In this document: positions 29,891 to 57,687 of the stretch, piece after piece | Layout: every line of letters starts with the position of its first letter | How positions within the stretch are numbered: the first letter of the stretch is position 1 | DNA from: a virus | Taxonomy: Duplodnaviria; Caudoviricetes | Length of the DNA: 64,000 nt | Virus record (IMG/VR): IMGVR_UViG_3300014205_000181 | Coordinates: 1-64,000 of that record | Direction: 5' to 3' (one strand) | The notes under the pieces: model-generated | Seen by the model: only the letters and a program-made list of their open reading frames with translations | The model's database searches: none | What the model was told of the DNA's origin: nothing | Translations under genes and position numbers: made by a program

Positions 29891-29986
29891 ATTAAGCGGA
29901 TAGGCTGACGGGCCGATAAATTAGCATTCCGAACTAATTTCCGCTTAATTTTTAAAATCGGAATAAATGCTACGGAGGTATTTATG
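29891..29986 (+). promoter_or_regulatory. Endonuclease-leader RNA motif, copy A
   Basis: P1 ATTAAGCGGA/TCCGCTTAAT; TAGGC-N6-GCCGATA; P3 AATTAG/CTAATT; loop ATTCCGA complementary to TCGGAAT at 29958. Confidence 0.75.
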
Positions 29987-31050
29987 AAAAAACTAAAATA
30001 TGTAAAGAGTGTAAAACTGAGAAAAATTCATCCGAATTTTATAATATGAAAAATACAAAGGATGGGTTACACATAAACTGTAAAGATTGTTGTTGTAAAA
30101 TATCGAGAGATAAAAGAAAGGAATATAGGAATAATTTAATTATAAGAGATCTTAAAGAAAATAAAAAATGTAGGATATGTGGAATAATAAAAGATATTGC
30201 GGAATTTCATAAAAACAAATCGTCGTTTGATGGTCGTGCATATATTTGTTCAGATTGCGCTTGTAACGAGAGTAAAAGATATAGAGGTATGTATAAAGAA
30301 ATTAATGAGATAGGGAATATCTGCCATGATGTGAAAAGATGTAGCCATTGTAAGGAAGAAAAAGAGATAGAAAATTTTAATTCAGATATTTCAAGTTTTG
30401 GAGGATTTGACAAATATTGTAAAGAATGTCGTTCTATCATGAATAAAGAATATTCTGAGAAAAATAAAGATAGGATTTCTGAATTTAGGAAAATAAATTA
30501 TATAAAAAATAGAGATTTAATTTTAGATAGACAGAGAAAATCTATGGAGGATATTGCGACATTTGCTAGATTTGGGCATAGATTGACTTCTGAAGAAGAG
30601 GCAATAGAAGGGGAAAATGGGGCTTTGTTGATTAAATGTACACATTGTAAAAAATATCATGTACAGAAAAACAAAGTAGTCCTGAATAGAATTGCTGCAT
30701 TAAATACCCCAGGCGGTAGCGAATCGAGGATTTATTGTTCTGACCAATGTAAACAAGATTGCGACATTTATTGGGCAAAGCTAATCCCCAAATCGCTTAG
30801 GAATATTGCAAGCAAATCTCGCTGTAACCAGAATAGAGTAAGAGAAATTTTACTAGATATTCAATTTGACGAAATGGGATGTAACTGGTGCGACAAATGC
30901 GGTGATATATTTGGACCAGAAGATTTATTCTTCCACCACAATATCCCGATTGGTGATGACCCAACAGAATACGATAACGCAGCTCATTATATGCTTGTTT
31001 GTAAAGATCATCACGAACATAAAGGTTGTCTTGGAAATAAATATGAATAA
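29984..31050 (+). CDS. Zn-finger-repeat/HNH-like endonuclease with an apparent frameshift just after the start
   Basis: Repeated C-x2-C...EF...DG...C-x2-C units; C-terminal CDKC...HH...LVCKDHH; the RBS-linked ATG at 29984 is out of frame with the main ORF (30046..31050). Confidence 0.65.
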
Positions 31051-31137
31051 TTCTCTACCACTAGAGAATCTATAAAGGCAACTCTGAGCCAGTCTGACGA
31101 ATCAGAGATTCTTTTAATCAAAACGGGAGAAGAAACT

Positions 31138-32370
31138 TTGCAAGAAAATCAACCAAACGATTTAGAACTTACAATCCAAACTTACCTTGACTTAGGTAAA
31201 AATGCAAGAGCTACAGCTAAAGCATTAAACCTTCCAAGAAGTACAGTCCGCAATCGTTTGAAGAAAGCAAAAAATAATCCTAAATATAAAGCATTATTAA
31301 ACATATCAGAAGATTTTAAAGTAACAGATACAAATATTTTAAATCAACAAATCCAAGAATTAAGAAGGCAGTTAAATTCTGCTCAAAAGAGTACTTTATT
31401 CACAGAACAGATTAAGAAATTTGTACTTAAATTAAAAGATTCAGACCCTATTTATCCTGAGTGGTTGGATAATTGCTTTGGTATTAAAAAAGACGATATA
31501 ATTGGTGTTCCTACTTTAATACTAAGCGATTGGCATTACGGGGAGGTAGTAGATCCAAATCAGATATTCGGCGTAAATGAATACAATATGGAGATTGCAA
31601 AGGAAAGGTCAAAAATTGTAGTTGATAAATGTATTGACCTTGCTTTTAATCATATCGCTAATCCAAAATATCCTGGAATTATTGTGGCATTGCTTGGAGA
31701 TATGACTACTGGACTTATCCATGATGAATTAAAAATTACTGGCGAAAAGGAAGTTCTCCAAGTTACATTAGAACTTCTTGGGGTAATGATTGAAGCTATT
31801 AATAAATTAGCAGATGCTTTCGGAAAGGTATTCTTGCCTTGTGTTGCTGGTAATCATGGAAGACTGACTCTCAAGCCAAGGGCAAAGGGTTATGCATACG
31901 ACTCCACCGATTGGCTATTATTTCAACTACTTGCGAAGTTCTTTGAAAATGATAAACGAGTAAAGTTTTTAATTTCGGATGGTGAAGATGCACAATATAA
32001 AGTTTACGATTTTACTTATAGGATTTCACACGGATCGCAGTTTAAAACGGGAGATGCAATCATAGGCAGCGCGGGAAGTATTATCAGAGGAGATATTCGG
32101 AAGCGTTCTTCTGCTCGTTCAATGGATGCGGAATATGATGTGCTGTTAATAGGCCATTTTCACCAATCAATGACAATTGCCCAAAGGTGTATTTGTAATG
32201 GATCGTTGGTTGGTTATAGTGAATATGCTGCTAAATGCAACTTTCCGTTTGAACCACCTACACAAAATTTCTTTATTACCCATCCAATTCATGGGGTGAC
32301 ATTTAACTTACCAATTAGAATAGAGAACAAGGTACAAGAAAAGAAAGAATGGGTTTCCTGGGAGGAATAA
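31138..32370 (+). CDS. HTH plus calcineurin-like phosphoesterase/nuclease
   Basis: N-terminal HTH (ARATAKALNLPRSTVRNRL); SDWH, LGD, GNHG, SHG, GHFH. Confidence 0.8.
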   Translation: MQENQPNDLELTIQTYLDLGKNARATAKALNLPRSTVRNRLKKAKNNPKYKALLNISEDFKVTDTNILNQQIQELRRQLNSAQKSTLFTEQIKKFVLKLKDSDPIYPEWLDNCFGIKKDDIIGVPTLILSDWHYGEVVDPNQIFGVNEYNMEIAKERSKIVVDKCIDLAFNHIANPKYPGIIVALLGDMTTGLIHDELKITGEKEVLQVTLELLGVMIEAINKLADAFGKVFLPCVAGNHGRLTLKPRAKGYAYDSTDWLLFQLLAKFFENDKRVKFLISDGEDAQYKVYDFTYRISHGSQFKTGDAIIGSAGSIIRGDIRKRSSARSMDAEYDVLLIGHFHQSMTIAQRCICNGSLVGYSEYAAKCNFPFEPPTQNFFITHPIHGVTFNLPIRIENKVQEKKEWVSWEE

Positions 32371-32903
32371 AATGAGAGCTTGTAATTGTACACTACCTTA
32401 TATAAATCCAGATGCTTGTAGTAATTGTCAAAACAGATCTACATTTGATGAGTATAAATTTTTAAATGATTTTATAGAGCAGCAAGAGCCATTACCACCC
32501 GAATTTCAGAAAGTACTGGATGACAACTTTTGGGAATTACTAGAAGAATGAACGCCATAAAATATTATATACTAAAATACCACCATTATATCTTTAATGA
32601 ATACCTACAAGTTCTAGGATTCGTAATATTTTTCAAGGTTAAAAACATATGGCTTTAATTTATCATTTAGTCCGTATAAAGCAGAATACACATGGACAAT
32701 TAGAACCTGTAAATAGAGATTATTGCCCTTTATATAAGGATAAAAACGAAATATCAGTATGTCAAGATGGAGATAATTATTGTGTAGGTATTGAACAAGG
32801 AAATGTTATAAAACAACTAGACAGTATTACATATTTAATTCAATGTAATTATTTTAATACAAAAAGAAGTAAAGCAATAGATAAATAAGATAGGAGGAAT
32901 ATA

Positions 32904-35552
32904 ATGACTGTAAATAAAGCATTTGCGTATATTAAAAAAGATGATTCTTTGGATTCTGAGCGTAGTATTATTTGCTATGCTTCTACTAATAGCGTTGATC
33001 GTCATGGAGATATGATCTTGCCTACGGCATGGTCCGAAAAAGGCATGAAGAATTACCGTAAGAATCCGGTAATTTTGCTTAATCATGACTACCATAATAC
33101 ATTGCCTGTTGGTAAATCTTTATGGCAGAAGACTGATGATAAAGGGTTAAAATTTAAAATCCAGTTTGCCGATACGGATCTAGGAAGGGAATTATATTAC
33201 CTATATTCTGGTGGCTATATGTCAAGCTTCAGCGTGGGTTTTCGTCCAGTGAAAACGTATGATAATGAAGATACTAAAAAATATAAGGATGAAGATGGTA
33301 ATATTCCCCATACAGTTTATGAAGAATGTGAACTATTAGAATTATCAGCCGTAAATTTGCCTGCAAATGCCGATGCTAACATGATTAGAACCGTAAAAGG
33401 GTTAGTAGAACAAGAAAAAGGTGGGTTTGTAAAATCTAAAGAATTGATTGATTTTATTGGCGGTATCAAGAGTTCAAAAGAATATATTGAATTAATTTCT
33501 GAGGACGAAGCAAAAGAAGCTCCACAAGAAAAAGCGAAAATTGTAGGGCATATCGATTTAGATTTTGACAATAAATATGTGAATGAAGATGAAATGATGA
33601 TTATTCCACTTAAAAAGAAATATGAAGATTGTGAAAATAAATGCGATAGTTGTAAAGATTGTAATAACGAAGAATTAACTGGAATTGTTGAAGAACCCGT
33701 TGAAGAAAAGTCACAAGATGATACTGATATCCAAGAGAAGGCTGAAGAGAAAGCAAAGAAACCATGTAAGAAAGAAGACGGCTGTGATGGTGAGTGCATT
33801 GGCGATGAATGTGATGAGTATGATTCATGTGATGAAGAAATGAAGAAACAATTCGTTGAGGTTTCTATTAATAAAGAAGTTATAGAGGAGATTACCGAAG
33901 AAAAACAAATTGAAGAAGTTGTTGAAACGGAAATCAAATCAGAATTGGATGAAATTATTGAAGATTCAATTAAAGAATTAGAAGAGGAAAATATAGAAAT
34001 AAAAGACACTTCTTACATTCAAAAAACGATTGATTTGTTTAATTCTTTAAATATTAAAAATATTACTCCAGAAATGAAAGAACAAATCAAAAAACAATAC
34101 GGAGAAGAGTTTGATATTTCAAGTGTAAAAGTAGAACCATATGGTTTTGAATATAAAATTTTCTGTAAGTTCCTTGGTTGTAAAGTAAAAGAAATTTTTA
34201 CTAATGACTTTTTTATTCCTACTGTAGAAAGAGGGAATTACCTTTCTGCCATTAAGACTGTGTTAAAAGATGCAACTCTCCTTGATCAAAGGGCATTTAC
34301 TCAAAATGGTTGCGAAGTTCCGCTTAAATATAGCACTATTAAATTAAATTCAAAAAGATCAGATGAATTTTTAATTACCGGGACTCAATTTTATAAATCC
34401 ACTGATGGTGAATCATTCATCCTTCAATTCTACCCTGTCTGGGGAGGAATGATAGCAGATATCTATTGTTCAAAAGACAAAAATAAAATAGCAAAATCAT
34501 TATTTGTTGATTCTGTTAAGTGGGTAGAAAAAAATAATTTTCTTAGAGGTGAAAAATTTTCCGTTAGCGGTGAATTTTTAGAAAGAAAATTATTTGAATG
34601 GGATGATGTAATTTATTCAAGTGATAAAGATAAAGAGACTATCAAGAAGAATGTTGAGAAGTTGTCAGAAACCTCTCCTAGTCGGGGGATGATGCTTGTT
34701 GGCCCTCCAGGAAACGGCAAAACTACCCTCGGCAAAGTTATGATGAATAAAATGGATTCAACATTTATTTGGGCTAGTTCAAAAGATTTTGAATGGGGTG
34801 CGGATTATACATTAGGTATTGGCTTTGAGATGGCTAGAAAATTAGCCCCCGCTGTATTTTTTATTGAGGATATTGATGGTTGGTTAAATGCTTATACTGT
34901 TGATCTTCTCAAGACAGAAATGGATGGTATTAGAGACAATAAAGGCGTTCTTACTATCTTAACAAGTAATTTCCCCGAAAATATGCCAGATGCATTGATT
35001 GATCGCCCAGGCAGATTCCATCATATTATAAATTTTTCTTTACCAAATAAAGAAAATAGAATAAAATTATTAAAGTTTTTTACTGAAAATGCCGATAAGG
35101 AAAGTATAGAAAAATTTGCAGATATGACAGAAGGATATAGTGGTTCACATCTAAGAGAATTAGTAGATTTTGCAAAAATGATTTCCGAAGATGAAGAAAT
35201 TTCAATAGACGAAGCATTAATGAAATCGTTTGAACAAATGAAAGAGCAAAGACAATTAATCCATGATATTAAAAATGAACCGAAGAAGAAAGAATTTATT
35301 GATATCGAAACTGTAGAAGTTAAAGATTCTAGTATTGATTTTGAAATTAAAAATACTGAAGAGGAAACGGTAATTAAAGAAACGATTGATTTTGAGATTA
35401 AAGAAACTAAACAAAGTGTAGATTTTAATATTACTAAAGAAGAGGCTCAAGAGATAATTAAAAATTCAATTATTAATGTAGCACAAGAAATGCAATCGAT
35501 TGAAGACTTAGTTGATGAAAGAATTAAAAGAGCAAAGGGTATTATTTTTTAA
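32904..35552 (+). CDS. HK97-family prohead protease fused to an AAA+ ATPase
   Basis: aa1-165: DRHGD, NPVILLNHD, PVGK, FSVGF, LLELSAV..PAN; C-terminal half: GPPGNGKT, FFIEDID, TSN, RPGRF, YSGSHLRE. Confidence 0.9.
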   Translation: MTVNKAFAYIKKDDSLDSERSIICYASTNSVDRHGDMILPTAWSEKGMKNYRKNPVILLNHDYHNTLPVGKSLWQKTDDKGLKFKIQFADTDLGRELYYLYSGGYMSSFSVGFRPVKTYDNEDTKKYKDEDGNIPHTVYEECELLELSAVNLPANADANMIRTVKGLVEQEKGGFVKSKELIDFIGGIKSSKEYIELISEDEAKEAPQEKAKIVGHIDLDFDNKYVNEDEMMIIPLKKKYEDCENKCDSCKDCNNEELTGIVEEPVEEKSQDDTDIQEKAEEKAKKPCKKEDGCDGECIGDECDEYDSCDEEMKKQFVEVSINKEVIEEITEEKQIEEVVETEIKSELDEIIEDSIKELEEENIEIKDTSYIQKTIDLFNSLNIKNITPEMKEQIKKQYGEEFDISSVKVEPYGFEYKIFCKFLGCKVKEIFTNDFFIPTVERGNYLSAIKTVLKDATLLDQRAFTQNGCEVPLKYSTIKLNSKRSDEFLITGTQFYKSTDGESFILQFYPVWGGMIADIYCSKDKNKIAKSLFVDSVKWVEKNNFLRGEKFSVSGEFLERKLFEWDDVIYSSDKDKETIKKNVEKLSETSPSRGMMLVGPPGNGKTTLGKVMMNKMDSTFIWASSKDFEWGADYTLGIGFEMARKLAPAVFFIEDIDGWLNAYTVDLLKTEMDGIRDNKGVLTILTSNFPENMPDALIDRPGRFHHIINFSLPNKENRIKLLKFFTENADKESIEKFADMTEGYSGSHLRELVDFAKMISEDEEISIDEALMKSFEQMKEQRQLIHDIKNEPKKKEFIDIETVEVKDSSIDFEIKNTEEETVIKETIDFEIKETKQSVDFNITKEEAQEIIKNSIINVAQEMQSIEDLVDERIKRAKGIIF
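35070..35099 (+). promoter_or_regulatory. sigma28/FliA-like promoter inside the protease gene, upstream of the capsid gene
   Basis: TTAAAGTTTTTTACTGAAAATGCCGATAAG. Confidence 0.7.
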
Positions 35553-35979
35553 AGGATATTTATGAATAAATATTATGGTCGTAGATGTATGGGACATTAT
35601 GTAAAATGTGATGATATTCCTAGTTTATTCAAACCAACAACTGTTGGTCGTTCAATTAAAATAGTACATGGCATTCCTGATGATTCGCAATTGATTGATC
35701 TAGTAATTCAAGATGGATATGATGGGAAAGAGTGCATGTTTGTGTTTGAAAGTGAAGAATTCGACGTATTTGAATATGGGGCAAAATCACTTCCTGGTAT
35801 TTCGGTTAGATATAGTTATTATACAATTAAAGAGTGATTTTTTAAATAAAACATAAATTATGGTTATACATCCTCAGTATAAAATATACCAAAAATCACT
35901 AAGGATGTCAAGAAAATTGCTGGAGATACTTTAGAGGTATTAGGCGATTATTAAAATAAAATATTTGGAGGAATTAAAT

Positions 35980-37227: not shown

Positions 37228-37268
37228 TTGATTTATTTGATAAATGATTATAATATAATGCTATGTGT

Positions 37269-37361
37269 TTTGGGATAGGACGGCCATCCGACAAGTTGAG
37301 AATTCTCCCGCTCAATTTCCCAAATTTAAAATTTACGGGAACATATGGGGATATGTAAATG
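37269..37361 (+). promoter_or_regulatory. Endonuclease-leader RNA motif, copy B
   Basis: P1 TTTGGGA/TCCCAAA; TAGGACGGCCATCCGACA; P3 AGTTGAG/CTCAATT; loop TCCCG complementary to CGGGA at 37336. Confidence 0.75.
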
Positions 37362-38456
37362 GCAAGAAAAGCAAATAAAGTAGAAGTAAAATGTGAAACG
37401 TGTGGCATCCAAAAGATTATCACTGAAAGAGCATATAACGACAATAAAACAAAGAGGTTTTATTGTAATTCTGAATGTAGAAGTAAAGATAGATTTAAAC
37501 AAATAGATGTTAGTTGTCCTAATTGTGGGAAAGAATTTTGGGTTCCAGAATCGCAATTTAATCGGACAAAATCTAAAAAGTTTTATTGTAGTGTAAAATG
37601 TAGGAGTGAACATTCTAATATTTTATCTATTTGCTCCGGTTGCGGAAAAGAGTTTATAAAGAAATCTTATGACAAAGGCGGTCTATTTTGCAGTAATGAA
37701 TGTTACTTTAAAAGCATAAGAAACAGGGTTAAAACAAATTGCGCTTTTTGTGGGAAAGAAATAGAAAAATCTAGACATCAATTTGATACTCAAGATAATT
37801 GTTTTTGCTCAAGGGAGTGTTTGTTTAGCTGGCAACGTGAAAATTGGCAAGGAGAGAGCCATCCTAATTATTCCCAAATTGAAATATCTTGTGGTTTTTG
37901 TGGTAAACAGATATCGAGAAATAAATGGCAGGTAGAGAATAGAAAATATCTCTTTTGTGATTCTTCTTGTCTTCACGATTTTATGAAAAGTGACAAGTCA
38001 TGGGGAAGAAAAGATAAACATTTAGTACCGTGTTCGAATTGTGGCAAAGAATTACTGGTTTCACCTGCTGAAGTGGATCGATATTGTAAACATTTTTGTG
38101 ATTCTTCTTGTAAGAGTGAATTTAATGTCGGAGAGAATAATCCTAACTGGAGAGGTGGATTATCATTCCAAGATTATGGGATGGAATTCAATGAAACACT
38201 AAAAGGGGTTGTTAGAAACAGGGATAATAGGACTTGTCAGTTATGTGGAGAGGTGGAAACGGATAGAAAGCATGACTGTCACCACATTGATTATTGCAAG
38301 GAAAATAATGTAGAAGAAAATCTTATTTCTTTATGTAGAGCGAATGGATGCCACTCAAAAACAAATGGGAATAGGAAGTATTGGGAAAAATATTTTAAGG
38401 AATTAATAGAACAAAAGTATAATAATCTTTTGGATGCTGCACGTTCAACAACATAA
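37359..38456 (+). CDS. HNH endonuclease with multiple CxxC...FCSxxC zinc-finger repeats
   Basis: Six Zn-finger repeats; NPNWRGG; RDNRTCQLCG...HHIDY...NLISLC. Confidence 0.85.
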   Translation: MARKANKVEVKCETCGIQKIITERAYNDNKTKRFYCNSECRSKDRFKQIDVSCPNCGKEFWVPESQFNRTKSKKFYCSVKCRSEHSNILSICSGCGKEFIKKSYDKGGLFCSNECYFKSIRNRVKTNCAFCGKEIEKSRHQFDTQDNCFCSRECLFSWQRENWQGESHPNYSQIEISCGFCGKQISRNKWQVENRKYLFCDSSCLHDFMKSDKSWGRKDKHLVPCSNCGKELLVSPAEVDRYCKHFCDSSCKSEFNVGENNPNWRGGLSFQDYGMEFNETLKGVVRNRDNRTCQLCGEVETDRKHDCHHIDYCKENNVEENLISLCRANGCHSKTNGNRKYWEKYFKELIEQKYNNLLDAARSTT

Positions 38457-39048: not shown

Positions 39049-39123
39049 AGCGGGTTGGAGAAGTAGGAACTCGTCAGGCTCATATCCTGAAGATCATAGG
39101 TGCAAATCCTATACCCGCTACCA
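39049..39123 (+). tRNA. tRNA-Met (CAT), initiator-like
   Basis: AGCGGGT/ACCCGCT acceptor; TCAGG-CTCATAT-CCTGA; encoded CCA. Confidence 0.88.
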
Positions 39124-39145
39124 ATATCAATAGAGGATTTAAAAT

Positions 39146-39412
39146 TTGGGAAACGAATACGTTAAAGTCAAATTCCTTTCAGATTGGATGGGTCATCCCG
39201 AAGGTTCCACCCTAACAATCATGAAGGTAAAAGCGAATGAATTAAAGGCGAGGAATATTATTAAACTAGTTGATACAGTTGATTCTAAATCTTTGATTGA
39301 TTTAAATAATAAGATTAAAGAAGAAATTAAAAACCTTGATTCTCCGCCTATGAATAAAATGATAGATTCCCCTCAAATTAAAAAATCTAGTGGTAGACCG
39401 AAAAAGAAGTGA
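39146..39412 (+). CDS. Hypothetical head-region protein
   Basis: ORF between tRNAs; basic C-terminus GRPKKK. Confidence 0.55.
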   Translation: MGNEYVKVKFLSDWMGHPEGSTLTIMKVKANELKARNIIKLVDTVDSKSLIDLNNKIKEEIKNLDSPPMNKMIDSPQIKKSSGRPKKK

Positions 39413-39421
39413 ATTGATTAT

Positions 39422-39499
39422 CTGTGTGTAGCTCAGTCTTAGTAGAGTAACCGCCTTGGACGCGGGAAGTCGGAGGTTCGAATCCTCCCACCCAGACCA
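39422..39499 (+). tRNA. tRNA-Pro (TGG)
   Basis: CTGTGTG/CACCCAG acceptor; loop CTTGGAC; GTTCGAAT; CCA. Confidence 0.85.
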
Positions 39500-39520
39500 T
39501 AATAGAATAGATTTTTAACG

Positions 39521-39596
39521 GCTGGATTAGCTCAGTTGGTAGAGCATCTGCCTTGTAAGCAGGCGGTCACGGGTTCGATGCCTGTATCCAGCTCCA
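39521..39596 (+). tRNA. tRNA-Thr (TGT)
   Basis: GCTGGAT/ATCCAGC acceptor; loop CTTGTAA; GTTCGA; CCA. Confidence 0.92.
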
Positions 39597-39978: not shown

Positions 39979-39999
39979 ATAGTTGACCTAATTACATAT

Positions 40000-40087
40000 T
40001 TGGGGATAGGGCTGTACACCTGACAAGAAGACTTAATCCATCTTCTTCCCCAATTTTATTTTAAGGACCATAGGAGGAATAACTATG
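40000..40087 (+). promoter_or_regulatory. Endonuclease-leader RNA motif, copy C
   Basis: P1 TTGGGGA/TCCCCAA; TAGG-N8-CCTGACA; P3 AGAAGA/TCTTCT; loop CTTAA complementary to TTAAG at 40061. Confidence 0.7.
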
Positions 40088-40786
40088 GAAAATGTATTAG
40101 GTAATAGGTACGGAAGATGGATTGTAATAAACAACAATCCGAGTATCAGGACGAAGAAAAGAAGATCGGTCATTTGTCAATGTTCATGTAAAAAGAAAAC
40201 CGTTAGGGAAGTAACTATTGTAGATTTGAAAATGGGTAAATCTAATTCTTGCGGATGTCTCCAAAGAGAAAGGGCAGCAGAATCGAATAGTACTCATGGG
40301 CTTTATAGGCACCCTTTGTATAATATCTGGGGTTTAATGATGGGAAGATGCTATAACAAAAATGGAGTTCAATATAAGGATTGGGGCGGTAGAGGAATAA
40401 TAGTTTGCGATGAGTGGAAATATAATCCCGAATTATTTATAGAATGGTGTTTAGAAAACGGATGGGTTCAGGGATTAGAAATTGATAGAGAAAACAATGA
40501 CGGGAATTATGAACCAAATAATTGTAGATTTGTAACATCTCAGATAAATATAATAAACATGAGATTAATTCAATCAAACAACACATCTGGATATAGGGGC
40601 GTTTATTATAATAAACGCAAAAGAAGTTATTGTTGCCAAATTGGATATAACAAGAAATATATTTTAAGTGAATCTGGCTTCAAAACACCAGAACAGGCGG
40701 CGAAAGCACGGGATATATTTATTATAAAAAACGATTTGCCTCATAAATTAAATTTCCCAGAACTAGCAATTAACGGGCCGCTATGA
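40085..40786 (+). CDS. HNH-AP2 homing endonuclease
   Basis: SCGC, RCY, WGGRGI.VC.EW, IDR.NNDGNYEP.NCRFV, NTSGYRGV. Confidence 0.85.
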   Translation: MENVLGNRYGRWIVINNNPSIRTKKRRSVICQCSCKKKTVREVTIVDLKMGKSNSCGCLQRERAAESNSTHGLYRHPLYNIWGLMMGRCYNKNGVQYKDWGGRGIIVCDEWKYNPELFIEWCLENGWVQGLEIDRENNDGNYEPNNCRFVTSQINIINMRLIQSNNTSGYRGVYYNKRKRSYCCQIGYNKKYILSESGFKTPEQAAKARDIFIIKNDLPHKLNFPELAINGPL

Positions 40787-48076: not shown

Positions 48077-48703
48077 ATGAAAAATATTAAACTTGCAATA
48101 GCAGTCCCATTAAGTCATAACAGCGTTCCATTACAGTTCTTCGAGTCATATGTAGCGATGTTGAAGCCATGTAGACATATGTTCATTCATGCTAGTAGCT
48201 ATCAAGGTGTCGATCATATGCGCAATCAGTTAATTGAAGGAGCAATAGTATACAATTGTTCACATATATTATTCCTTGATGTAGACCATCGGCATCATCC
48301 AGAAACAATTACAAAACTATTATCTCATAAATTGCCCATTGTCTCAGGTCTTTCATATATGCGCAATGCTGATTATGAACCATGTATGTTTCGTGGGATG
48401 ATAAATAAATATGAAACGATTACAGAGTGGGAAGAAAATTCTTTGGTTGAAGTAGATAGTGTTGGCGCTGCCTGTTTATTAGTTGATATGAAAGTATTTA
48501 ACGACATACAAAGGCCATATTTCAAATTTATGGAAAATCCCGACCCAACTGCAAAATATGGAATAGGAGAAGACGTAGTATTCTGCAATAAGGCAAAACA
48601 AGCAGGATATAAAATTTATGTAGACACAAGCTGTACTAATAAACACATTGGACAAATTGAAGTAGATGGAGATATTTATAAAAAATGGAATGGTGCTAAT
48701 TAA
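48077..48703 (+). CDS. GT-A fold glycosyltransferase-like protein (paralog 2)
   Basis: HILFLDVD, GED..FC, VDTS. Confidence 0.75.
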   Translation: MKNIKLAIAVPLSHNSVPLQFFESYVAMLKPCRHMFIHASSYQGVDHMRNQLIEGAIVYNCSHILFLDVDHRHHPETITKLLSHKLPIVSGLSYMRNADYEPCMFRGMINKYETITEWEENSLVEVDSVGAACLLVDMKVFNDIQRPYFKFMENPDPTAKYGIGEDVVFCNKAKQAGYKIYVDTSCTNKHIGQIEVDGDIYKKWNGAN

Positions 48704-49275: not shown

Positions 49276-49362
49276 TATTTCAGAAACTAATGAAGGATTT
49301 TATGACGCTATCAAATCAACTAATACTGATGAGACTAATAATTTATCGGGTGAGTTAATTAA

Positions 49363-50220
49363 ATGAAAATTTTGGTCTTAGGTGCTAGTGGGATGCTTGG
49401 CAGTTCTATGCTAAATGTAATGAGCGAAAATAAAAAATTAGATGTATTCGGAACAGTAAGGGGAAAATCAGATAAGAAATTTTTTACCCAACAAATCCAA
49501 GATAAAGTTCTCCATAACGTAAATATAGAAAATGAAAATACATTAAATGGATTGTTCGTTTCTTTAAAGCCAGACGTAGTTATTAATTGTGTTGGGATAG
49601 TAAAGCAAATTGATGACGCGAATAGTCCGTTAAAATCTATAGCTATAAATTCTTTGTTCCCCCATAAATTGAAATCATTATGCGATTCTTTTGATTCTAG
49701 GTTAATACATATCAGTACAGATTGTGTATTCTCTGGTAAATATGGGATGTATAAAGAAGAAGATGTCTCTGACTGTACAGATTTTTATGGCAAGACTAAA
49801 TATTTAGGAGAGGTTATTTCAGATAGATCGTTAACGATAAGAACCTCTATAATTGGCCCAGAGTTAAAAACGAACCATGGATTACTTAACTGGTTTTTAA
49901 GTCAAGGAAAAGAATGCAATGGGTATAGCAATGCGGTTTTTAGTGGTTTCCCAACTGTAGTATTGTCCCAGATATTAAGAGATATCATTATTCACGATGA
50001 GTCGATTAGTGGGTTATATAACATTGCTTCTGAAAAAATTTCAAAATTTGATTTACTGAGATTAATAGCTGATATTTATAAAAAAGATATTAAAATTAAT
50101 GACTATAAAGATTTTACAATCGATAGGTCTTTAGATGGTTCTAAATTTAATTTAAAGTCTGGGTACATAACTCCTAATTGGGAAAGCATGATTAATACAA
50201 TGAGAGGTATTAATGTTTAG
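49363..50220 (+). CDS. RmlD-like NDP-4-keto-6-deoxyhexose reductase (QnlA/WbvR type)
   Basis: GASGMLG, HISTDCVFSG, YGKTK, IRTSIIG; no C-terminal cupin. Confidence 0.88.
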   Translation: MKILVLGASGMLGSSMLNVMSENKKLDVFGTVRGKSDKKFFTQQIQDKVLHNVNIENENTLNGLFVSLKPDVVINCVGIVKQIDDANSPLKSIAINSLFPHKLKSLCDSFDSRLIHISTDCVFSGKYGMYKEEDVSDCTDFYGKTKYLGEVISDRSLTIRTSIIGPELKTNHGLLNWFLSQGKECNGYSNAVFSGFPTVVLSQILRDIIIHDESISGLYNIASEKISKFDLLRLIADIYKKDIKINDYKDFTIDRSLDGSKFNLKSGYITPNWESMINTMRGINV

Positions 50221-51223: not shown

Positions 51224-52322
51224 GGTGATGACAATTGTTGGGACTAGGCCCGAATTAATAAAAATGTCTAGGGTTATAGATAAATTAGATAAAAATACAA
51301 ATCATATTTTAGTACATACTGGTCAGAATTATGACTATGAGTTGAATCAGATTTTTTTCGACGAACTTAAAATAAGAAAACCAGATTATTTTTTAGAAGT
51401 TGCTGGTGAAAATACAGCACAAACGATAGCAAACATTATCGAAAGAACAGATAAGGTAATAGAGGCAGAAAGTCCAGATGCTTTTGTAATATACGGAGAT
51501 ACCAATTCGTGTCTTTCTGTAATTTCAGCCAAAAGGAGAAAAGTGCCTGTATTCCATATGGAAGCAGGCAATAGGTGTTTTGATCAAAGAGTTCCAGAAG
51601 AATTAAATAGAAAGATAATAGACCAGTTATCTGATATTAATATTGTTTTATCTGATAGAGCTAGAGAAAATCTTGTACTAGAAGGAATAAGACCAGAAAC
51701 TATATTTAAGTCTGGTTCTCATATGAAAGAAGTTTTAGATTACTACATGTCTGATGTGTATAGGTCAGACGTACTAAATAGATTAAAATTAAAAAGTTCA
51801 AGTTATTTTGTGTTTAGTTTTCATAGGGAAGAAAATATTGACGACATAGATAATTTAAAAACTATAATTAAATCGATAAAGGCAGTATCTGCAACATATA
51901 ACCTCCCTGTTATAGTATCCACTCACCCTAGAACAAAGAAAGCATTAGATGATTTAAATATTAGTACAGATGAAAAGATTATTTTTAGTAAGCCGTTTGG
52001 GTTATTTGATTACATAAAGTTGCAAATCAATGCAAAATGTGTTGTCTCAGATAGCGGTACAATAACAGAAGAGAGTTCTCTACTCGGTTTTCCTGCTGTT
52101 ACTATTAGGAATACTCATGAAAGGCCAGAGGGAATGGATAATGGTGTTTTAATCATGTCTGGTGTAGATACTGGGTCAATAATGGATTCGGTAGATGTTG
52201 CTATAAAATGCGGCAAGCCACATGCGATTGATGAATACAATAAACAAGATGTATCTACCCATATATTAAAATTGATATATAGTCATACTGGATACATTAA
52301 TAGAACCGTATGGCATAAATAA
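51216..52322 (+). CDS. Non-hydrolysing UDP-N-acetylhexosamine 2-epimerase (FnlC/QnlB/WbjD type)
   Basis: GTRPE, HTGQNYD, GDTNS, HMEAGNR, SDSGT.EE, ERPEG. Confidence 0.92.
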   Translation: MLKVMTIVGTRPELIKMSRVIDKLDKNTNHILVHTGQNYDYELNQIFFDELKIRKPDYFLEVAGENTAQTIANIIERTDKVIEAESPDAFVIYGDTNSCLSVISAKRRKVPVFHMEAGNRCFDQRVPEELNRKIIDQLSDINIVLSDRARENLVLEGIRPETIFKSGSHMKEVLDYYMSDVYRSDVLNRLKLKSSSYFVFSFHREENIDDIDNLKTIIKSIKAVSATYNLPVIVSTHPRTKKALDDLNISTDEKIIFSKPFGLFDYIKLQINAKCVVSDSGTITEESSLLGFPAVTIRNTHERPEGMDNGVLIMSGVDTGSIMDSVDVAIKCGKPHAIDEYNKQDVSTHILKLIYSHTGYINRTVWHK

Positions 52323-52353
52323 TGATAACGGTTAATGTGTTATTAGTGAAGCA

Positions 52354-53178
52354 ATGAAAAGAATACCTAAGATAGTTCATATGTATTGGGACGGAACACC
52401 TATGTCTAAACTACAGACTTTTACTGTAACTTCTTTTTGTAGGTTAAATCCAGATTGGAAAGTAATAGTACATCTTGATAAATTAAGGTATCGTGGGAAC
52501 AATAAATATATACCTTCCTATGTACGAGAAGATTATTTCCATATAGTGAAGGATAATAAACAAGTTAATATAGATGAAGTAAATCTTTCTGATTATGGCG
52601 TCAGTGGAGATTTACATCCGATATTAAGATCAGATATATTGAGGTATCATTGGCTATATAATGAGGGAGGTGTTTGGTCAGATTTTGATGTTATTTGGTT
52701 AAAACCTATTCATTATTTAAGCACTATAGCTGGAACTGATTCATTTGGGGTTACTTTATGCATGTACGATGGGAAAAAGAAACATCATAATGTAAGTGTA
52801 TTGGTCAGTTCCAAAGGCCACGAATTTTATAGGTATGCCATATATTTATGCAATGAAATAAAAAATAAAATAACAGAAAACCCGGACCATCAGGAGTTCG
52901 GGAATTCAATTTTTAATAAAGCATTCCCTAAGCCTGAAGACGCCTTGAGTAAATTCCCAGATATGATTAATTTAAAATATGAAACATTTTTCCCGTATTC
53001 TATTTTTAATATGGACGCGCTGTATTTAAGTACGGACTTAACGTATATAACAGACTCGGTTATTGGTGTACATTGGTTTAACGGCCACAAGTATAGTAAG
53101 GACTACGTAAATAACAATGGTTTCAGTAGAGATTGTAGTATGACAGAAATCATTAAAAATGAGGGTTATAATGACTAA
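52354..53178 (+). CDS. DXD glycosyltransferase (GT32/Och1-like)
   Basis: IPKIVH.YW, SDILR..LY.EGGVWSDFD, VHWF. Confidence 0.85.
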   Translation: MKRIPKIVHMYWDGTPMSKLQTFTVTSFCRLNPDWKVIVHLDKLRYRGNNKYIPSYVREDYFHIVKDNKQVNIDEVNLSDYGVSGDLHPILRSDILRYHWLYNEGGVWSDFDVIWLKPIHYLSTIAGTDSFGVTLCMYDGKKKHHNVSVLVSSKGHEFYRYAIYLCNEIKNKITENPDHQEFGNSIFNKAFPKPEDALSKFPDMINLKYETFFPYSIFNMDALYLSTDLTYITDSVIGVHWFNGHKYSKDYVNNNGFSRDCSMTEIIKNEGYND

Positions 53179-54004
53179 AAGAAATATTTTTTTATTTAAG
53201 GCAGAAGGAAAAGAAAATTTCGGAGAATACTTATGTAAGAGTGTTATACAAAAGATGGGGTTTGGACTTAATAATTATTCTAATGTTAACCAGATAACAG
53301 AACCAATTGATTATATAATGACTGGGATAGGTGGATTTCTAAACAATGAAATCCATTCTTTATATTTAACTAAAGCCAAGAAGTGGTATGTGTGGGGTAG
53401 CGGAGTTCATTGCATTCCTTTACCTTGGCATAAATTATCGGAAGACATCATAAAGAACAAATGTATTATAACTGCTTTAAGAGGTCCGATGACCAGGGAT
53501 TATTACGGGATCAAAGATGATATTACACTAGGTGATGCTGGCTACTTAGCTTCTTATTTTTTTAAATTCCCAGTAAATGAGAAGAAGAAGAATGTACTCA
53601 TTAATCATCATTATGATAATGTTAAAAAACCGATGAAAGGAATAGATATTCATATATCGTCTTTGATGGACTCAGACATTAATGGTTCTTTTGACAATCA
53701 GTTTAAATACATATTGAATAGTATATGTAACGCAAATATAGTAATGACTAGCTCTATGCACGTAGCTATAGTTGCTTATTCTTATGGTATTCCCTTTGCA
53801 ATGGTAGCCAAGAGAGAGACTGATTTAGTTAAAGAGTGGAAGTGGCATGATACATTATTGAATATGGGCATAACAAAGAAAATAGTATTGTGTGAGAGTA
53901 TAGAAGATGGTTGGGCTTGGTGGAACAGTGTTCAGAAAGATATACGTCCAATTACTAAAGAATATCAGGGAACAATAATAAAGGCATTTCCCGTAATACT
54001 ATGA
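53171..54004 (+). CDS. Polysaccharide pyruvyltransferase-like protein
   Basis: NFGE, WGSG, LRGP.T, GD, TSSMH...AYSYGIP. Confidence 0.8.
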   Translation: MTKRNIFLFKAEGKENFGEYLCKSVIQKMGFGLNNYSNVNQITEPIDYIMTGIGGFLNNEIHSLYLTKAKKWYVWGSGVHCIPLPWHKLSEDIIKNKCIITALRGPMTRDYYGIKDDITLGDAGYLASYFFKFPVNEKKKNVLINHHYDNVKKPMKGIDIHISSLMDSDINGSFDNQFKYILNSICNANIVMTSSMHVAIVAYSYGIPFAMVAKRETDLVKEWKWHDTLLNMGITKKIVLCESIEDGWAWWNSVQKDIRPITKEYQGTIIKAFPVIL

Positions 54005-54822
54005 AGTGTTATTTAGCATATTCAGCAAATCCAGATGTAAGACATAAAGCGTCAACTGGGGGATTTTGCAAAGAATTTTTACGTTTTTGCATAGAGGGGA
54101 AAATAATAGATAAGTCAATACTAACAATTCTTGGAGAAGGAGAAGAAGCTTTAATCCCAAGAACTATAATTACTGATGATATAGAGAAGATAATGTCTAC
54201 GAAGAGTAATTCTATATATGATAAAACTAATCCATTATCCATTTTATCTAGTTTGAATAAAAACGAAAGTTATATTTTTGTAGGTTTGCCATGTCATATT
54301 TACTCAGTTAAAAAATATTGCAGCAAACACAATATCCGAATTATAACAATATCTTTATTCTGCAATCATACATCAGACAATAAATATTATAAAAGTGTTT
54401 TAGATAAAGCAAACCTGAGTGAAATAGATGTAAAACATTTCGAATATAGAGGATCTGGATGGCCTGGGTTTGAAAAAATAATTACCAATGAAGACCAGGA
54501 AATTAAGATTGACCATATAGAGGGATGGGATAATTATGTAAAAAAATATATGCAAATGCTACCAAAATGCAAGGTGTGCACCAGAATGATTTCGGAAGAA
54601 GCAGACATATGTGTTGGCGATGCATGGATGCAAAAAGTATTAAATAACGATAGCAATGGAACTAATATGGTTGTGGCGATGACCACAACAGCGGATAAAC
54701 TTGTAATGGATTGTTGTAAAAGTGGATATATTCATATTGAACATTTAGATATATCTGAATTTGAGGCCCAGAATAATAGGTCTGTTAAAATTAAGAAAGA
54801 TAGAAGAGAGGCTTATGAATAG
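54001..54822 (+). CDS. F420 hydrogenase/dehydrogenase beta-subunit (FrhB)-like Fe-S protein
   Basis: ASTGG, FVGLPC, LFC, YRGSGWPG, CKVC...ADICVGDAW. Confidence 0.8.
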   Translation: MKCYLAYSANPDVRHKASTGGFCKEFLRFCIEGKIIDKSILTILGEGEEALIPRTIITDDIEKIMSTKSNSIYDKTNPLSILSSLNKNESYIFVGLPCHIYSVKKYCSKHNIRIITISLFCNHTSDNKYYKSVLDKANLSEIDVKHFEYRGSGWPGFEKIITNEDQEIKIDHIEGWDNYVKKYMQMLPKCKVCTRMISEEADICVGDAWMQKVLNNDSNGTNMVVAMTTTADKLVMDCCKSGYIHIEHLDISEFEAQNNRSVKIKKDRREAYE

Positions 54823-55675
54823 CTGGAGTATGTCGATCCCTAAGGTTCTCAATTTGTATTGGGGTAAAAATAAACCATTATCTTTTATGAAGTACCTGAC
54901 CGCTTTATCTTTTGTGAAACATAACCCAGATTGGGAGATAATAGTTTATTACCCATCTGTGGTAGAAAGTAAAATATTGTGGGATAGCAATGAACAAAAA
55001 GAATATAATTATGATGACATTGATTATTTTGATAGATTAAGTAATATTAAAAATTTATCTTTAAGGAAAACCGAGTTTGGTGAATTTTCAAACTTATCAG
55101 AAGTACATAAATCAGATCTCATTAGGCTTAAAATATTATCAACATCAGGTGGGGTTTGGTCAGATTTTGATATTTTTTATACAAAATCGATTAATGAATT
55201 CGATCTAAATAATACTGACAATAAATTAAAAGATACATTTGTTTGCTTCACTAGTTATCATAGTATCGGGTTTTTAATGAGTTCTGGGAATAATAAATTC
55301 TTTGAAGAACTATATAAAATGGCAATATATAATATAAAAAATGCTGAAAATCTACAATACCAAAATTTAGGTAGGGATTTATATAATTATTTTTTTAAAT
55401 ATAATGATTATAAAGCGATTAATTATTCAATTAAATTCAATTGTAACATTGCAAACATTACATTTGAAACGGTATATCCACTACAATGGAACCAGATAGA
55501 TTTAATATTTGGCGATAACAAACAGCGATTACCAGAAAATACAGTTGGCGTACATTGGTTTGCTGGATCTCCAATAACATCTAGTGTAGAGAATAAAATT
55601 ACAGAAGAAAATATCCACCTTAATAAAGATAAATTCCTTCTAAAACTAATGTGTGAATTACTTGAAGAAATATAG
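54815..55675 (+). CDS. DXD glycosyltransferase (GT32-like)
   Basis: IPK...YW, KSDLIRL..L..SGGVWSDFD, VHWFAG. Confidence 0.85.
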   Translation: MNSWSMSIPKVLNLYWGKNKPLSFMKYLTALSFVKHNPDWEIIVYYPSVVESKILWDSNEQKEYNYDDIDYFDRLSNIKNLSLRKTEFGEFSNLSEVHKSDLIRLKILSTSGGVWSDFDIFYTKSINEFDLNNTDNKLKDTFVCFTSYHSIGFLMSSGNNKFFEELYKMAIYNIKNAENLQYQNLGRDLYNYFFKYNDYKAINYSIKFNCNIANITFETVYPLQWNQIDLIFGDNKQRLPENTVGVHWFAGSPITSSVENKITEENIHLNKDKFLLKLMCELLEEI

Positions 55676-56462
55676 TATTGTGTTTCCTTATTATAAAAGA
55701 TCTAGTCAACTCCATAATTCACTTATTTCGTTCCAACATCACTATAAAGATAGAAATGATTATGAAGTAATTGTCGTTGAAGATATTAAAAACTATAATA
55801 ATGCAGAAGAACACGAAAAACTATTAAAAGTATTAAAGTTTTATACACAAAATGCCGATAAGGTAGTTAATATAAAACTGATAAAATCGAGCTTTGAGAA
55901 TTGTTATAATCCAGCTCCTTTATTTAATTTAGGAGTGAAAAACGCTAGTGGCGAATATTTAATTATAACAAATCCAGAGATATTCCATAAAGATAATATA
56001 TTGAGTGCATGTGATGATATATTGTCTAAATACGATGACCATTATATAGTATTTTCTTGCCTTAATGTTGATGAGTATCCTAAAAGTGTATCTGATTTTG
56101 ATGAATTTACTTTTAAACCAAAAATGTGGTATCAACATTTAAAATATAGAAATGCTTTATTCCATTTCTGTTCCTGCTTGTCGAAGAGACAGTATGAAGA
56201 AATTGGGGGATTTGATGAAATATATTCATTAGGTATTGCATACGATGATGACGATTTCAGAGAAACAATAAATAAAGCAGGGATTCAATTCATAGCAACT
56301 GATTCATTTTTAACATTGCATCAAGATCATGGAAGTGTGTTTGATAAATTGCCTGATTATGAAAAGAGATTGAATAGAAATAAAGCGTTGTATTATTTGA
56401 AGAAGCAAAATAAGTCAAGTGAGTATATTAACCAATTTTTAGGAGAGAATTTTGGTGGATAA
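55653..56462 (+). CDS. GT2-family glycosyltransferase
   Basis: SIVFPYY, YEVIVVED, N.GV..A.G, IGGFDE, YDDDDF. Confidence 0.85.
   Translation: MNYLKKYSIVFPYYKRSSQLHNSLISFQHHYKDRNDYEVIVVEDIKNYNNAEEHEKLLKVLKFYTQNADKVVNIKLIKSSFENCYNPAPLFNLGVKNASGEYLIITNPEIFHKDNILSACDDILSKYDDHYIVFSCLNVDEYPKSVSDFDEFTFKPKMWYQHLKYRNALFHFCSCLSKRQYEEIGGFDEIYSLGIAYDDDDFRETINKAGIQFIATDSFLTLHQDHGSVFDKLPDYEKRLNRNKALYYLKKQNKSSEYINQFLGENFGG
55833..55862 (+). promoter_or_regulatory. sigma28/FliA-like promoter inside the GT2 gene, upstream of the major tail gene
   Basis: TTAAAGTTTTATACACAAAATGCCGATAAG. Confidence 0.7.
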
Positions 56463-57135
56463 AGAGAACATCCGTTTGGGAATTGGGCTTCCATTGGTAG
56501 ACGACAAGGTACACACTGCATTTTTAGATTCCTTTGTGATGATGAAGAAGCCAAATTTCGTATATATTAGGCCAACATTCCCATCAATGCAGATTGATGT
56601 AATTAGAAATCAATTGGTTAAGCAAGCATTAGAATCTGGTTGTACTCATTTGTTGATGCTAGATACGGATCAGGTATACCATGACCCAGATATGATTAGT
56701 AAAATGCTGGAACACGATAAAGATGTTGTATCAGCTATCGTACATAGGCGCTATCCTGGCTTTGATCCCATCACTCTAAGGGGTGAACCTGGGAAGTACT
56801 TAATGGTTCCAGATGAAGAAATTTTAGCAGCAAGAGAATTAGATAACCACCTAATTGAAATAGACGCGACAGGTGGAGGTTGTTTACTTTACAAGACTGA
56901 AGTATTTTTAAAAATCCCGCCAGCTTGGTTTGAATTTTCAAGAACTGAAGGCGGCGATGTCATAGGAGAGGATGTAAATTTTTGTTATAAATTGAAGCAA
57001 AATGGATATAAGATATATTGTGATACGTCTATTGATATTGGGCATTTAAGCAATTTAGAAATAAATTGGGCGACATATCGGCTTTACGGCCACTTAAAGA
57101 AACTACAAAAAGAAGATGAAAATAAGAAATTATAA
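56452..57135 (+). CDS. GT-A fold glycosyltransferase-like protein (paralog 3)
   Basis: THLLMLDTD, GEDVNFC, CDTS..IGH. Confidence 0.75.
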   Translation: MVDKENIRLGIGLPLVDDKVHTAFLDSFVMMKKPNFVYIRPTFPSMQIDVIRNQLVKQALESGCTHLLMLDTDQVYHDPDMISKMLEHDKDVVSAIVHRRYPGFDPITLRGEPGKYLMVPDEEILAARELDNHLIEIDATGGGCLLYKTEVFLKIPPAWFEFSRTEGGDVIGEDVNFCYKLKQNGYKIYCDTSIDIGHLSNLEINWATYRLYGHLKKLQKEDENKKL

Positions 57136-57168
57136 ATAAGCAATTATAAATAAGCAGGAGGTATAAAT

Positions 57169-57585
57169 ATGGCACAAGCATATGCTGGACGTGAAACACA
57201 GGTAACATTGAATGGTGGCACAATTAGTCTTTTAGGGTCTTGGACTCTTAATGGGCAGGAAGTTGAGCTTTTGGAGCAAACTGCTTTCGGAGACACCTAT
57301 CGTCAGTTTTTGCCCGGTTTGAAGAGCGGAGGCACTATTTCTTTTAACGGTTTGTACGATGGCACCGATACTGCGGGCCAAACCGCCCTTCGGAATTATA
57401 ACGCTAACAATACTAGCGTGACTGACATTAAGTTATACGTGGATGATACCAGCTATTATACGCCGAGTACCACAAATCCATTATCATATTGCTGGGTGAC
57501 TGGCTTTGATGTTGGCTCTGAGGTCGGTGGCTTAGTCACTGCTACATTTTCACTCGCCGTGTCTGGCAAGATGGTACTCGTATAA
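57169..57585 (+). CDS. Major tail (tube) protein
   Basis: TAFGD.....PGLKSGG.ISF.G; strong RBS; synteny. Confidence 0.8.
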   Translation: MAQAYAGRETQVTLNGGTISLLGSWTLNGQEVELLEQTAFGDTYRQFLPGLKSGGTISFNGLYDGTDTAGQTALRNYNANNTSVTDIKLYVDDTSYYTPSTTNPLSYCWVTGFDVGSEVGGLVTATFSLAVSGKMVLV

Positions 57586-57599
57586 TAAATTAAATAATT

Positions 57600-57687
57600 G
57601 TGGGATAGGACGGCCATCCGATAAGCATAGACCTAGCTATGTTTCCCACTCTTTACAATTTCTAGGTTTCTGCTAGGAGAAAATATG
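57600..57687 (+). promoter_or_regulatory. Endonuclease-leader RNA motif, copy D
   Basis: P1 GTGGGA/TCCCAC; TAGGACGGCCATCCGATA; P3 AGCATAG/CTATGTT; loop ACCTAG fully complementary to CTAGGT at 57662. Confidence 0.78.

Follow-up and report, generated by a model that had tools for sequence, protein, structure and literature searches.

A structured RNA leader of the int-alpA type in front of phage endonuclease genes, and its probable role in limiting their translation

Homing endonucleases are common selfish genes of phages, and how they stay harmless inside essential late operons has been explained for only a few T-even cases. The question is raised four times over by a 64,000-nucleotide stretch of a tailed-phage genome (Duplodnaviria; Caudoviricetes; positions 1 to 64,000 of IMG/VR record IMGVR_UViG_3300014205_000181; hereafter, the window), in which four endonuclease genes are each preceded by the same kind of RNA leader, a three-way junction followed by a segment complementary to one of its loops. 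An earlier note, made from the letters of the window alone, had pointed to these leaders and proposed that they are cis-acting switches that limit translation of the nucleases. What is this leader, how widely does it occur, and what might it do for the gene behind it? We find that it is a real, strongly supported structured RNA with strong covariation, and that it is a broader form of the catalogued int-alpA motif, of which Rfam holds a narrow form. Judging from its sequence and context, the leader probably acts in cis to attenuate translation of the gene that follows, which is the best explanation we can offer for it.

The leader family and its relation to int-alpA

The leader is built of three stems. 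P1 terminates in three G-C pairs (GGG/CCC) and is joined by the strand J1/2 (AUA) to P2, a hairpin of 3-4 bp with GG at its start and CC or CU at its end. J2/3 (GAYA) leads on to P3, which opens with A-U and G·U pairs and carries a loop of 6-10 nt; a single U separates P3 from the 3' strand of P1. After P1 come a U/A-rich linker and a segment complementary to the P3 loop, which we call the decoy, and part of the decoy sequence is repeated in the region of the ribosome-binding site (RBS). Usually a small hairpin lies 3' of the decoy; its loop displays the Shine-Dalgarno sequence (SD), and its stem takes in part of the AUG. The distance from a leader to a start codon on its own strand is 24-45 nt. 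The leaders come from DNA of 37-77% GC and every stem varies, yet some ten nucleotides of the junction are nearly invariant.

The window is the first 64 kb of a 144.5-kb contig (C1) in an assembly of 301 contigs and 3.7 Mb. Among sequencing runs, one DNA run from a landfill metagenome was found to contain it, with contigs that confirm the sequence, and no RNA run is listed. The pattern GATAGG-N5-10-CC(N)GAYAA occurs in it four times, always on the + strand (29899, 37274, 40005 and 57604), where 0.04 occurrences are expected. A covariance model, R1, built on 18 leaders (17 from IMG/VR contigs and the third copy of the window) recovers precisely the same four sites when run with filters off, at 45.7 to 58.2 bits, the next best hit reaching 9.5 bits, and finds no fifth leader in the 301-contig assembly. 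The architecture that the earlier note had read into these four places is therefore shared: all four copies align end to end with R1, which has the layout P1-UA-P2-GA(N)AA-P3-P1' with a P3 loop of 7-10 nt, and minimum-energy folding reproduces the three-way junction for sites 1 and 3. Their parts are as follows.

Leader 1, 29891..29949, + strand: R1 46.1 bits; minimum-energy fold shows the junction; P1 29891-29899/29941-29949; P2 29903-29914, loop UGACGG, non-palindromic; J2/3 GAUA 29915-29918; P3 29919-29924/29934-29939; P3 loop CAUUCCGAA 29925-29933
Leader 1 tail, 29958..29986, + strand: decoy UCGGAAU 29958-29964, 7 bp with the P3 loop; tail hairpin 29963-29985; RBS-side site CGGAG 29973-29977 (pairing read directly off the sequence); SD GGAGG 29974-29978 in the hairpin loop; AUG 29984-29986 partly in the stem
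Leader 2, 37267..37325, + strand: R1 55.8 bits; P1 37267-37274/37319-37325; P2 37278-37289, loop CGGCCA with palindrome GGCC; J2/3 GACA; P3 37294-37300/37311-37317; P3 loop AAUUCUCCCG 37301-37310
Leader 2 tail, 37336..37361, + strand: decoy CGGGA 37336-37340; tail hairpin 37341-37356, its loop being the SD GGGG 37347-37350; AUG 37359
Leader 3, 39998..40054, + strand: R1 58.2 bits; P1 39998-40005/40048-40054; P2 40009-40021, loop C plus UGUACA, a 6-nt palindrome; J2/3 GACA; P3 40026-40031/40041-40046; P3 loop CUUAAUCCA 40032-40040
Leader 3 tail, 40061..40088, + strand: decoy UUAAG 40061-40065, weak, 5 bp; tail hairpin 40068-40088, containing SD AGGAGG 40072-40077 and AUG 40085-40087
Leader 4, 57600..57649, + strand: R1 45.7 bits; P1 57600-57604/57645-57649; P2 57608-57619, same as leader 2 (GGCC); J2/3 GAUA; P3 57624-57630/57637-57643; P3 loop ACCUAG 57631-57636
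Leader 4 tail, 57662..57687, + strand: decoy CUAGGU 57662-57667; second target copy CUAGG within the SD region 57673-57679; AUG 57685

A single strict pattern finds relatives on more than 118 IMG/VR contigs and in at least 120 stretches of bacterial genome contigs (more than 100 contigs), and the family alignment on R1 comprises 108 hits, representing 83 distinct leaders. R1 finds no copy in phages T4, T5, SPO1, K and Aeh1, nor, with stricter filters, in a sample of 150 other genomes of the same phylum. Among the 83 distinct leaders, 96.4% of the cells pair and both sides change in 13 of 16 pairs. The covariation score is 0.765, against 0.197 after shuffling and at most 0.16 for slid partners, which bears out the claim that P1 and P3 covary around a fixed junction. 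Since this alignment is fitted to the model, pairs were also counted without gaps, by distance from the invariant anchors. At P1 offsets 3-7, 78% of the cells pair, versus 41% with swapped or slid partners, and at P3 offsets 2-5 pairing is found in 75-78 of the 83 leaders, with all four Watson-Crick types represented. In copies missed by the pattern, even the "invariant" GGG/CCC pairs and the P2 stem have changed in a compensatory way. Alignments of the full set of leaders made with MAFFT were out of register on the 3' side and were excluded from counting.

The earlier note did not recognize the leader as a named family, and this has to be corrected. Site 1 scores 38.1 bits against Rfam family RF02996, int-alpA, exceeding the curated gathering cut-off of 35.8 bits. 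The match is seen only with laxer filters; a gathering search of the whole window with default filters returned three tRNAs only and missed site 1. The correction is a partial one, as RF02996 gives no match to sites 2-4 at E values up to 10. Relatives from IMG/VR and bacterial genomes score 43.9, 43.7, 37.9, 35.4, 35.1, 33.1, 32.9, 30.2 and 22.6 bits, or not at all, and because these scores form a continuum, we regard the leaders as a broad form of int-alpA that is partly covered by the present model. The likeness extends to the plan of the molecule: the RF02996 consensus runs through P1, UA, a short P2 hairpin, GAAAA, P3 with a 9-nt CCUU-containing loop and P1' to a U-rich linker and a loop-matching AGGG, and ends ...uuuuuuuauaAgGG opposite the loop CCuUu. 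The U/A-rich linker and the purine-rich loop complement are present, as in int-alpA, in the four copies and family-wide. The two differ in that the Rfam model is narrow and GC-rich, is typed "Gene; sRNA" and is named for integrase/alpA neighbors, whereas the leaders of the window belong to a lytic-type phage and stand before HNH endonuclease genes of its late structural operons; their neighbors are portal, capsid, tail tube and HNH endonucleases, not integrase and alpA. R1 finds no copy in the intA-alpA region of E. coli K-12. The family dates from a comparative-genomics survey (Weinberg et al., 2017; PMC5737381), the main text of which does not mention int-alpA. Our literature searches found for int-alpA no published function, pseudoknot analysis or endonuclease link, other papers listing the name only, and no paper on the leader described here.

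A loop with two partners

In each copy the P3 loop finds its complement in the tail, where the earlier note had placed it: ATTCCGA with TCGGAAT (29958-29964), TCCCG with CGGGA (37336-37340), CTTAA with TTAAG (40061-40065) and ACCTAG with CTAGGT (57662-57667). The further remark that the target recurs at the RBS is confirmed at site 4 by the second CTAGG (57673-57679). The best loop:tail duplex of leader 1 amounts to -9.9 kcal/mol, that of leader 2 to -8.9 kcal/mol, and the duplex of the leader 4 loop with its RBS copy to -9.2 kcal/mol.

The same relationship holds across the family. The longest Watson-Crick match between a loop and its own tail averages 5.78 nt, against 4.19 nt (maximum 4.46) with swapped tails, and the excess is found both in the decoy region alone (4.04 versus 2.81) and in the 20 nt upstream of the start codon (5.03 versus 3.64). 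Two separate loop-complementary sites of at least 5 nt are present in 50 of the 83 leaders, against 5.6 (maximum 14) after loop swapping. The loop-tail match was replicated in 59 new leaders from bacterial genomes (5.59 versus 4.25). Local folding of the RBS region gives a mean z of -1.05 and pairs the start codon in part in 42 of 79 cases, with the SD mostly in the loop of a hairpin and not in its stem. A CsrA-type reading, in which the leader would offer two GGA-containing sites, was rejected: many decoys have no GGA, and loop pairing accounts for the decoys.

Orthologues provide the clearest evidence for a loop with two partners. Two syntenic relatives of the phage, L004 and L092, share about 50-70% protein identity with it and have leaders at corresponding positions. 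Between site 4 and L092:9916-9975, P1 and P3 show compensatory changes, and the trio of loop, decoy and RBS site reads ACCUAG/CUAGGU/CUAGG in the window and UCAUUCA/UGAAUGA/GAAUGA in L092, all three having changed in concert. Compensatory changes in P1 and P3 are also found between site 2 and L004:7538-7596, where the pairing of CUCCCG with ACGGGA is retained; site 3 and L004:5078-5138 have different 6-nt palindromes in P2, UGUACA versus UUCGAA. Megablast with 5.5 kb of sequence found nothing in the phage collection, the terminase shares only 31% identity with those of cultured phages, nuclease 4 has distant relatives only, and two relatives of the tail-tube protein were found by an alignment-based search and none by the initial one. 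L092 carries in addition an AP2/HNH nuclease gene without a leader (3072-3611); it follows the homologue of window 48077-48703, behind which the window itself has no nuclease.

The P2 loop has a regularity of its own. Many P2 loops consist of one base plus a self-complementary stretch of 4-6 nt (UUGCAA, CUGCAG, CUUAAG, UGUACA, CUCGAG, AGCU, GGCC), and the palindrome is mostly off-center by half a base with respect to the P2 stem, so that it is not a mere extension of that stem. Among 51 distinct P2 hairpins from IMG/VR, palindromes of at least 4 nt occur in 75%, against 43% after shuffling (maximum 69%), and those of at least 6 nt in 37%, against 10.5% (maximum 23.5%). The bacterial set gives 73% versus 46% for at least 4 nt, just reaching the shuffle maximum of 73%, and 21% versus 10% (maximum 27%) for at least 6 nt, which is not significant. 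Exceptions are the GNRA-like tetraloops of some leaders and the P2 loop of site 1, which has no palindrome. The pattern hints at kissing-loop dimerization of leader RNAs through their P2 loops, which seems a reasonable idea. It is conceivable, if rather doubtful, that such dimers shift the P3 loop between decoy and RBS, making the leader a concentration-sensing RNA. Translation of a selfish or dosage-sensitive gene would then be tied to the copy number of the transcript, and hence of the phage genome, and neither a protein nor a metabolite would be required; sites 2 and 4, which share a P2 loop (GGCC), would be regulated together, and site 3 (UGUACA) would be insulated from both.

Genes around the leaders

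The genes upstream of the leaders encode a portal protein (Pfam, 1.3e-54), a capsid protein (2.3e-42), a 105-aa open reading frame (ORF) and a major tail protein (PHROG, 1.6e-12). The earlier note had each leader directly behind a structural gene, which is right for portal, capsid and major tail; the third leader follows the 105-aa ORF, which has no assignment. All four downstream genes encode His-Me/HNH-type endonucleases, each from a different PHROG family. The four had been called unrelated, and in architecture they do differ, but the type of catalytic fold is common to all.

Endonuclease gene 1, 29984..31050, + strand: Lar-like Zn finger and endonuclease VII/HNH
Endonuclease gene 2, 37359..38456, + strand: zf-FCS and HNH, phrog_1271, 3.5e-30
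Endonuclease gene 3, 40085..40786, + strand: AP2 and HNH, phrog_374, 8.5e-62
Endonuclease gene 4, 57685..58551, + strand: NUMOD3 and HNH

Gene 1 contains a break in its reading frame. Translation from the AUG at 29984 would not enter the frame of the long ORF unless it shifted by -1 in the A6 run at 29987-29992. The PHROG matches begin at residues 2-3 of the frame opened at 29986, and the Zn-finger domain of the long ORF begins immediately after the AUG; a shift on AUG AAA AAA C would join the two frames. The A6 run is identical in an independent assembly (a Logan contig) of the probable source run. Gene 1 could be a pseudogene, it could employ a programmed -1 frameshift, or the break could be an error common to the reads. 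Group I introns are frequent in the structural genes of phages, and we also considered that the nucleases might belong to such an intron or to a split host gene; we rejected this idea, as portal and capsid match full Pfam profiles and no intron hit was obtained.

Elsewhere in the family, many of 58 downstream proteins from IMG/VR have HNH, GIY-YIG, NUMOD or AP2 domains, and in bacterial genomes most downstream proteins have no Pfam domain. A same-strand ORF precedes 73 of 81 leaders. Cultured carriers include Neomesorhizobium albiziae DSM 21822, Methylocapsa aurea KYG, Paraburkholderia elongata 5N, Ancylobacter tetraedralis DSM 5895, a Phyllobacterium sp. and Geobacter sp. AOG1; the leaders in these genomes mostly stand before proteins of 200-380 aa that lack a Pfam domain.

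Some other features of the window lie near the leaders. An exonuclease-like gene (31138-32370; phrog_284, 8e-43) and an 882-aa ORF (32904-35552) are found between portal/nuclease 1 and capsid, and three tRNA genes (Met-CAT, Pro-TGG and Thr-TGT; 39049-39596) lie between nuclease gene 2 and leader 3. Sites of the sigma-28/FliA type, TAAAGTTT-N11-12-GCCGATA, are distributed over 3405-55860, mostly upstream of + strand late genes (for example at 23864, 25284, 35071, 48043 and 55834).

What the leader may do

We propose that a rigid three-way junction, with P1 stacked on P3 and the AUA and GAYA(A) strands conserved, would serve to present the 6-10 nt P3 loop. That loop complements a decoy 13-17 nt past P1 and a site in the RBS region, the latter often within the loop of a small hairpin to which the start codon also contributes in part. 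Pairing of the loop with the RBS would block the 30S subunit (off), pairing with the decoy would leave the RBS free (on), and the balance of the two would result in low translation of the downstream gene. In this phage, the genes throttled in this manner would be four HNH-type homing endonucleases within strongly expressed late operons. Dimerization of the RNA through the P2 loop, ribosomes terminating just upstream, and a ligand or protein at the junction are candidates for shifting the balance. From the earlier proposal of a cis-acting RNA that limits translation, the covarying junction with its loop-tail pairing right 5' of the SD stands, and the limit on translation is the best reading of that arrangement. 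Repression as the outcome, and which of the two states is the default, we infer. We favor a translational throttle on the basis of the fold and its covariation, the two-site complementarity of the loop, the co-change in orthologues, the RBS hairpin, the gene context and the precedent of the T-even phages discussed below.

Several observations weigh against this proposal. The loop:tail duplex of leader 3 reaches just -4.5 kcal/mol, and both its decoy and its RBS pairings are weak. The decoy pairing often equals or exceeds the RBS pairing in strength, so that the net effect of the leader could be activation or stabilization instead of repression, and the invariant junction nucleotides could equally mark a binding pocket. 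The association with endonucleases, to which the earlier note had confined the leader, is too narrow a description: a random sample of 20 downstream genes contained nine nucleases, the other 11 being two tail assembly chaperones, an anti-repressor, a structural protein, two replication proteins and five unknowns. About seven further endonuclease-like ORFs on the same contig are without a leader (listed below), which indicates that the taming of toxic nucleases is not the whole story. Some of them are close paralogues of nuclease 3 (E down to 6e-75). They abut upstream coding sequence, which suggests that they are expressed in a different mode. A last point concerns the related phage L133 (3427-3555), which, in comparison with L132 (3429-4369), lacks exactly 882 nt: its tail-tube gene is followed by the junction, which has been kept with no nuclease gene behind it. 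The absent stretch starts at the 3' end of P1 and spans linker, decoy, RBS and nuclease ORF, and the P3 loop of L133 has no downstream partner. Two histories would account for this: loss of a nuclease unit that spared the junction, or insertion of nuclease genes downstream of pre-existing junctions. Both imply that junction and ORF can be separated from each other.

Leaderless nuclease-like ORF, window 2519-3199, - strand
Leaderless nuclease-like ORF, window 18417-19235, + strand
Leaderless nuclease-like ORF, contig C1 77370-78128, - strand
Leaderless nuclease-like ORF, contig C1 79699-80481, - strand
Leaderless nuclease-like ORF, contig C1 83871-85013, - strand
Leaderless nuclease-like ORF, contig C1 88325-89026, - strand
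Leaderless nuclease-like ORF, contig C1 139748-140887, - strand

A riboswitch or protein-operated switch would extend translational attenuation and is compatible with it: the junction (AUA, GAYAA and the U by the three G-C pairs) would bind a small molecule, an ion or a conserved protein, and binding would decide between decoy and RBS. The near-invariance of some ten junction nucleotides over so wide a range of GC content, while the stems vary, is what a binding site might produce, and a loop with two partners has the layout of an expression platform. We nevertheless consider such a switch unlikely, as nucleases, anti-repressors, tail chaperones and replication proteins have nothing in common, in metabolism or transport, that would suggest a ligand, such an aptamer would be very small, and the invariant A-rich strand beside GGG/CCC may be no more than a structural minor-groove brace. 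A somewhat smaller chance attaches to the leader being a 5'-terminal stabilizer or insulator, in which junction and pseudoknot, at the 5' end of the transcript or right after an upstream stop codon, would shield the mRNA from 5'-end-dependent RNases or stop re-initiation by ribosomes that terminate upstream, control of the RBS by the loop being secondary. In 22 of the 83 leaders, an exact TATAAT (12 of them TGn-extended) ends 8-22 nt, mostly 9-10 nt, before the GGG of P1, and near-consensus -10 boxes accumulate at -20 to -1. This spacing places the start of transcription at the foot of P1, so that the transcript would carry the whole fold, and many leader cassettes seem to bring their own promoter. 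For 38 of 81 leaders, moreover, no more than 20 nt separate the upstream stop codon from the start of P1. A plausible -10 box is found, however, at only two of the four copies in the window (sites 2 and 4, with TATAAT boxes ending 13 and 16 nt before the GGG), a generic promoter and terminator scan of the window showed no enrichment, and the covariation of the loop with two sites downstream, of which one lies in the RBS, would have no explanation in a stabilizer.

The remaining alternatives are much less probable. Rfam lists RF02996 as "Gene; sRNA", and a trans-acting RNA might pair with other mRNAs through its P3 loop, but every loop matches the RBS region of the gene that it precedes and the two change together, start codons follow the leaders at 24-45 nt on the same strand, and our terminator scan of the window found no terminator after the junction; we think it very improbable that the leader acts in trans. 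No more credit is due to a small self-cleaving ribozyme that would cut the nuclease mRNA out of the late polycistronic transcript. The small size, conserved junction, pseudoknot and phage context would suit one, and the lariat-capping ribozyme upstream of eukaryotic intron homing-endonuclease genes is a precedent in concept. Yet no ribozyme family of Rfam 15 (including hammerhead, twister, twister-sister, pistol, hatchet and HDV-like) matches the leaders at E values up to 10, there is no evident conserved cleavage dinucleotide, and to our knowledge none of the hammerhead, twister, pistol, hatchet and HDV cores fits the junction. We attach just as little weight to an element that acts as DNA, be it a homing or recombination target or a sigma-28-type promoter. 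The CCGATAA of the leader resembles the -10 box GCCGATAA, the phage apparently employs promoters of this kind, with 13 sigma-28-like TAAA-N14-17-CCGATA sites in the window against 1.07 expected, and the junction of L133 survives without a nuclease gene. None of those 13 sites coincides with a leader, however, and the leaders have no TAAA box at the right spacing, so that CCGATAA was rejected as a sigma-28 promoter; the reverse strand of the window scores at most 9.4 bits on R1, and G-U pairs together with strand-specific compensatory changes in P1 and P3 show that selection acts on RNA.

If translational attenuation is indeed its function, the leader would be a widespread and portable answer to the question of how selfish nucleases are kept harmless, found with a single strict pattern on more than 118 viral and more than 100 bacterial contigs of 37-77% GC. 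Its logic of an anti-RBS loop, a decoy and possibly a dimer loop is testable, and experiments are within reach in cultured bacteria that carry the leader naturally, among them Paraburkholderia elongata 5N and Neomesorhizobium albiziae DSM 21822. The int-alpA family appears to be far broader than its Rfam model, and cis-acting rather than an sRNA, and we suggest that a rebuild is warranted. A compact translational throttle that can be programmed by sequence could also serve synthetic biology.

Among known RNAs, the preQ1-II, SAM-II and fluoride riboswitches are pseudoknot translational riboswitches. In them, as in the leader, a hairpin loop pairs with a 3' tail near or over the SD and so controls initiation; the leader differs in that no ligand is known or implied by its context, in having no riboswitch match in Rfam, and in the two partners of its one loop, which are unusual. 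The P2 loop recalls the HIV-1 DIS, a kissing-loop dimerization signal, in that the hairpin loop consists of an unpaired base and a self-complementary sequence of 4-6 nt that is variable and yet palindromic. For the leader, dimerization is suggested by statistics that are strong in the IMG/VR set and weaker in the bacterial one. The homing endonuclease genes I-TevI, I-TevII, I-TevIII, segB and Aeh1 mobE of T-even phages are limited by RNA structure that sequesters the RBS, in the form of simple, local hairpins relieved by a late promoter embedded in the hairpin (PMC2988022). The leaders do not show that combination of an SD buried in a stable hairpin with an embedded promoter; where a leader has a -10 box, the predicted transcript start includes the whole structure. 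Sequence conservation across a family, absent from the T-even hairpins, is found here in a junction that is combined with distant loop pairing and a decoy. What the two systems would have in common is the principle, a post-transcriptional limit, by RNA structure over the RBS, on selfish nuclease genes that ride on long and abundant phage transcripts.

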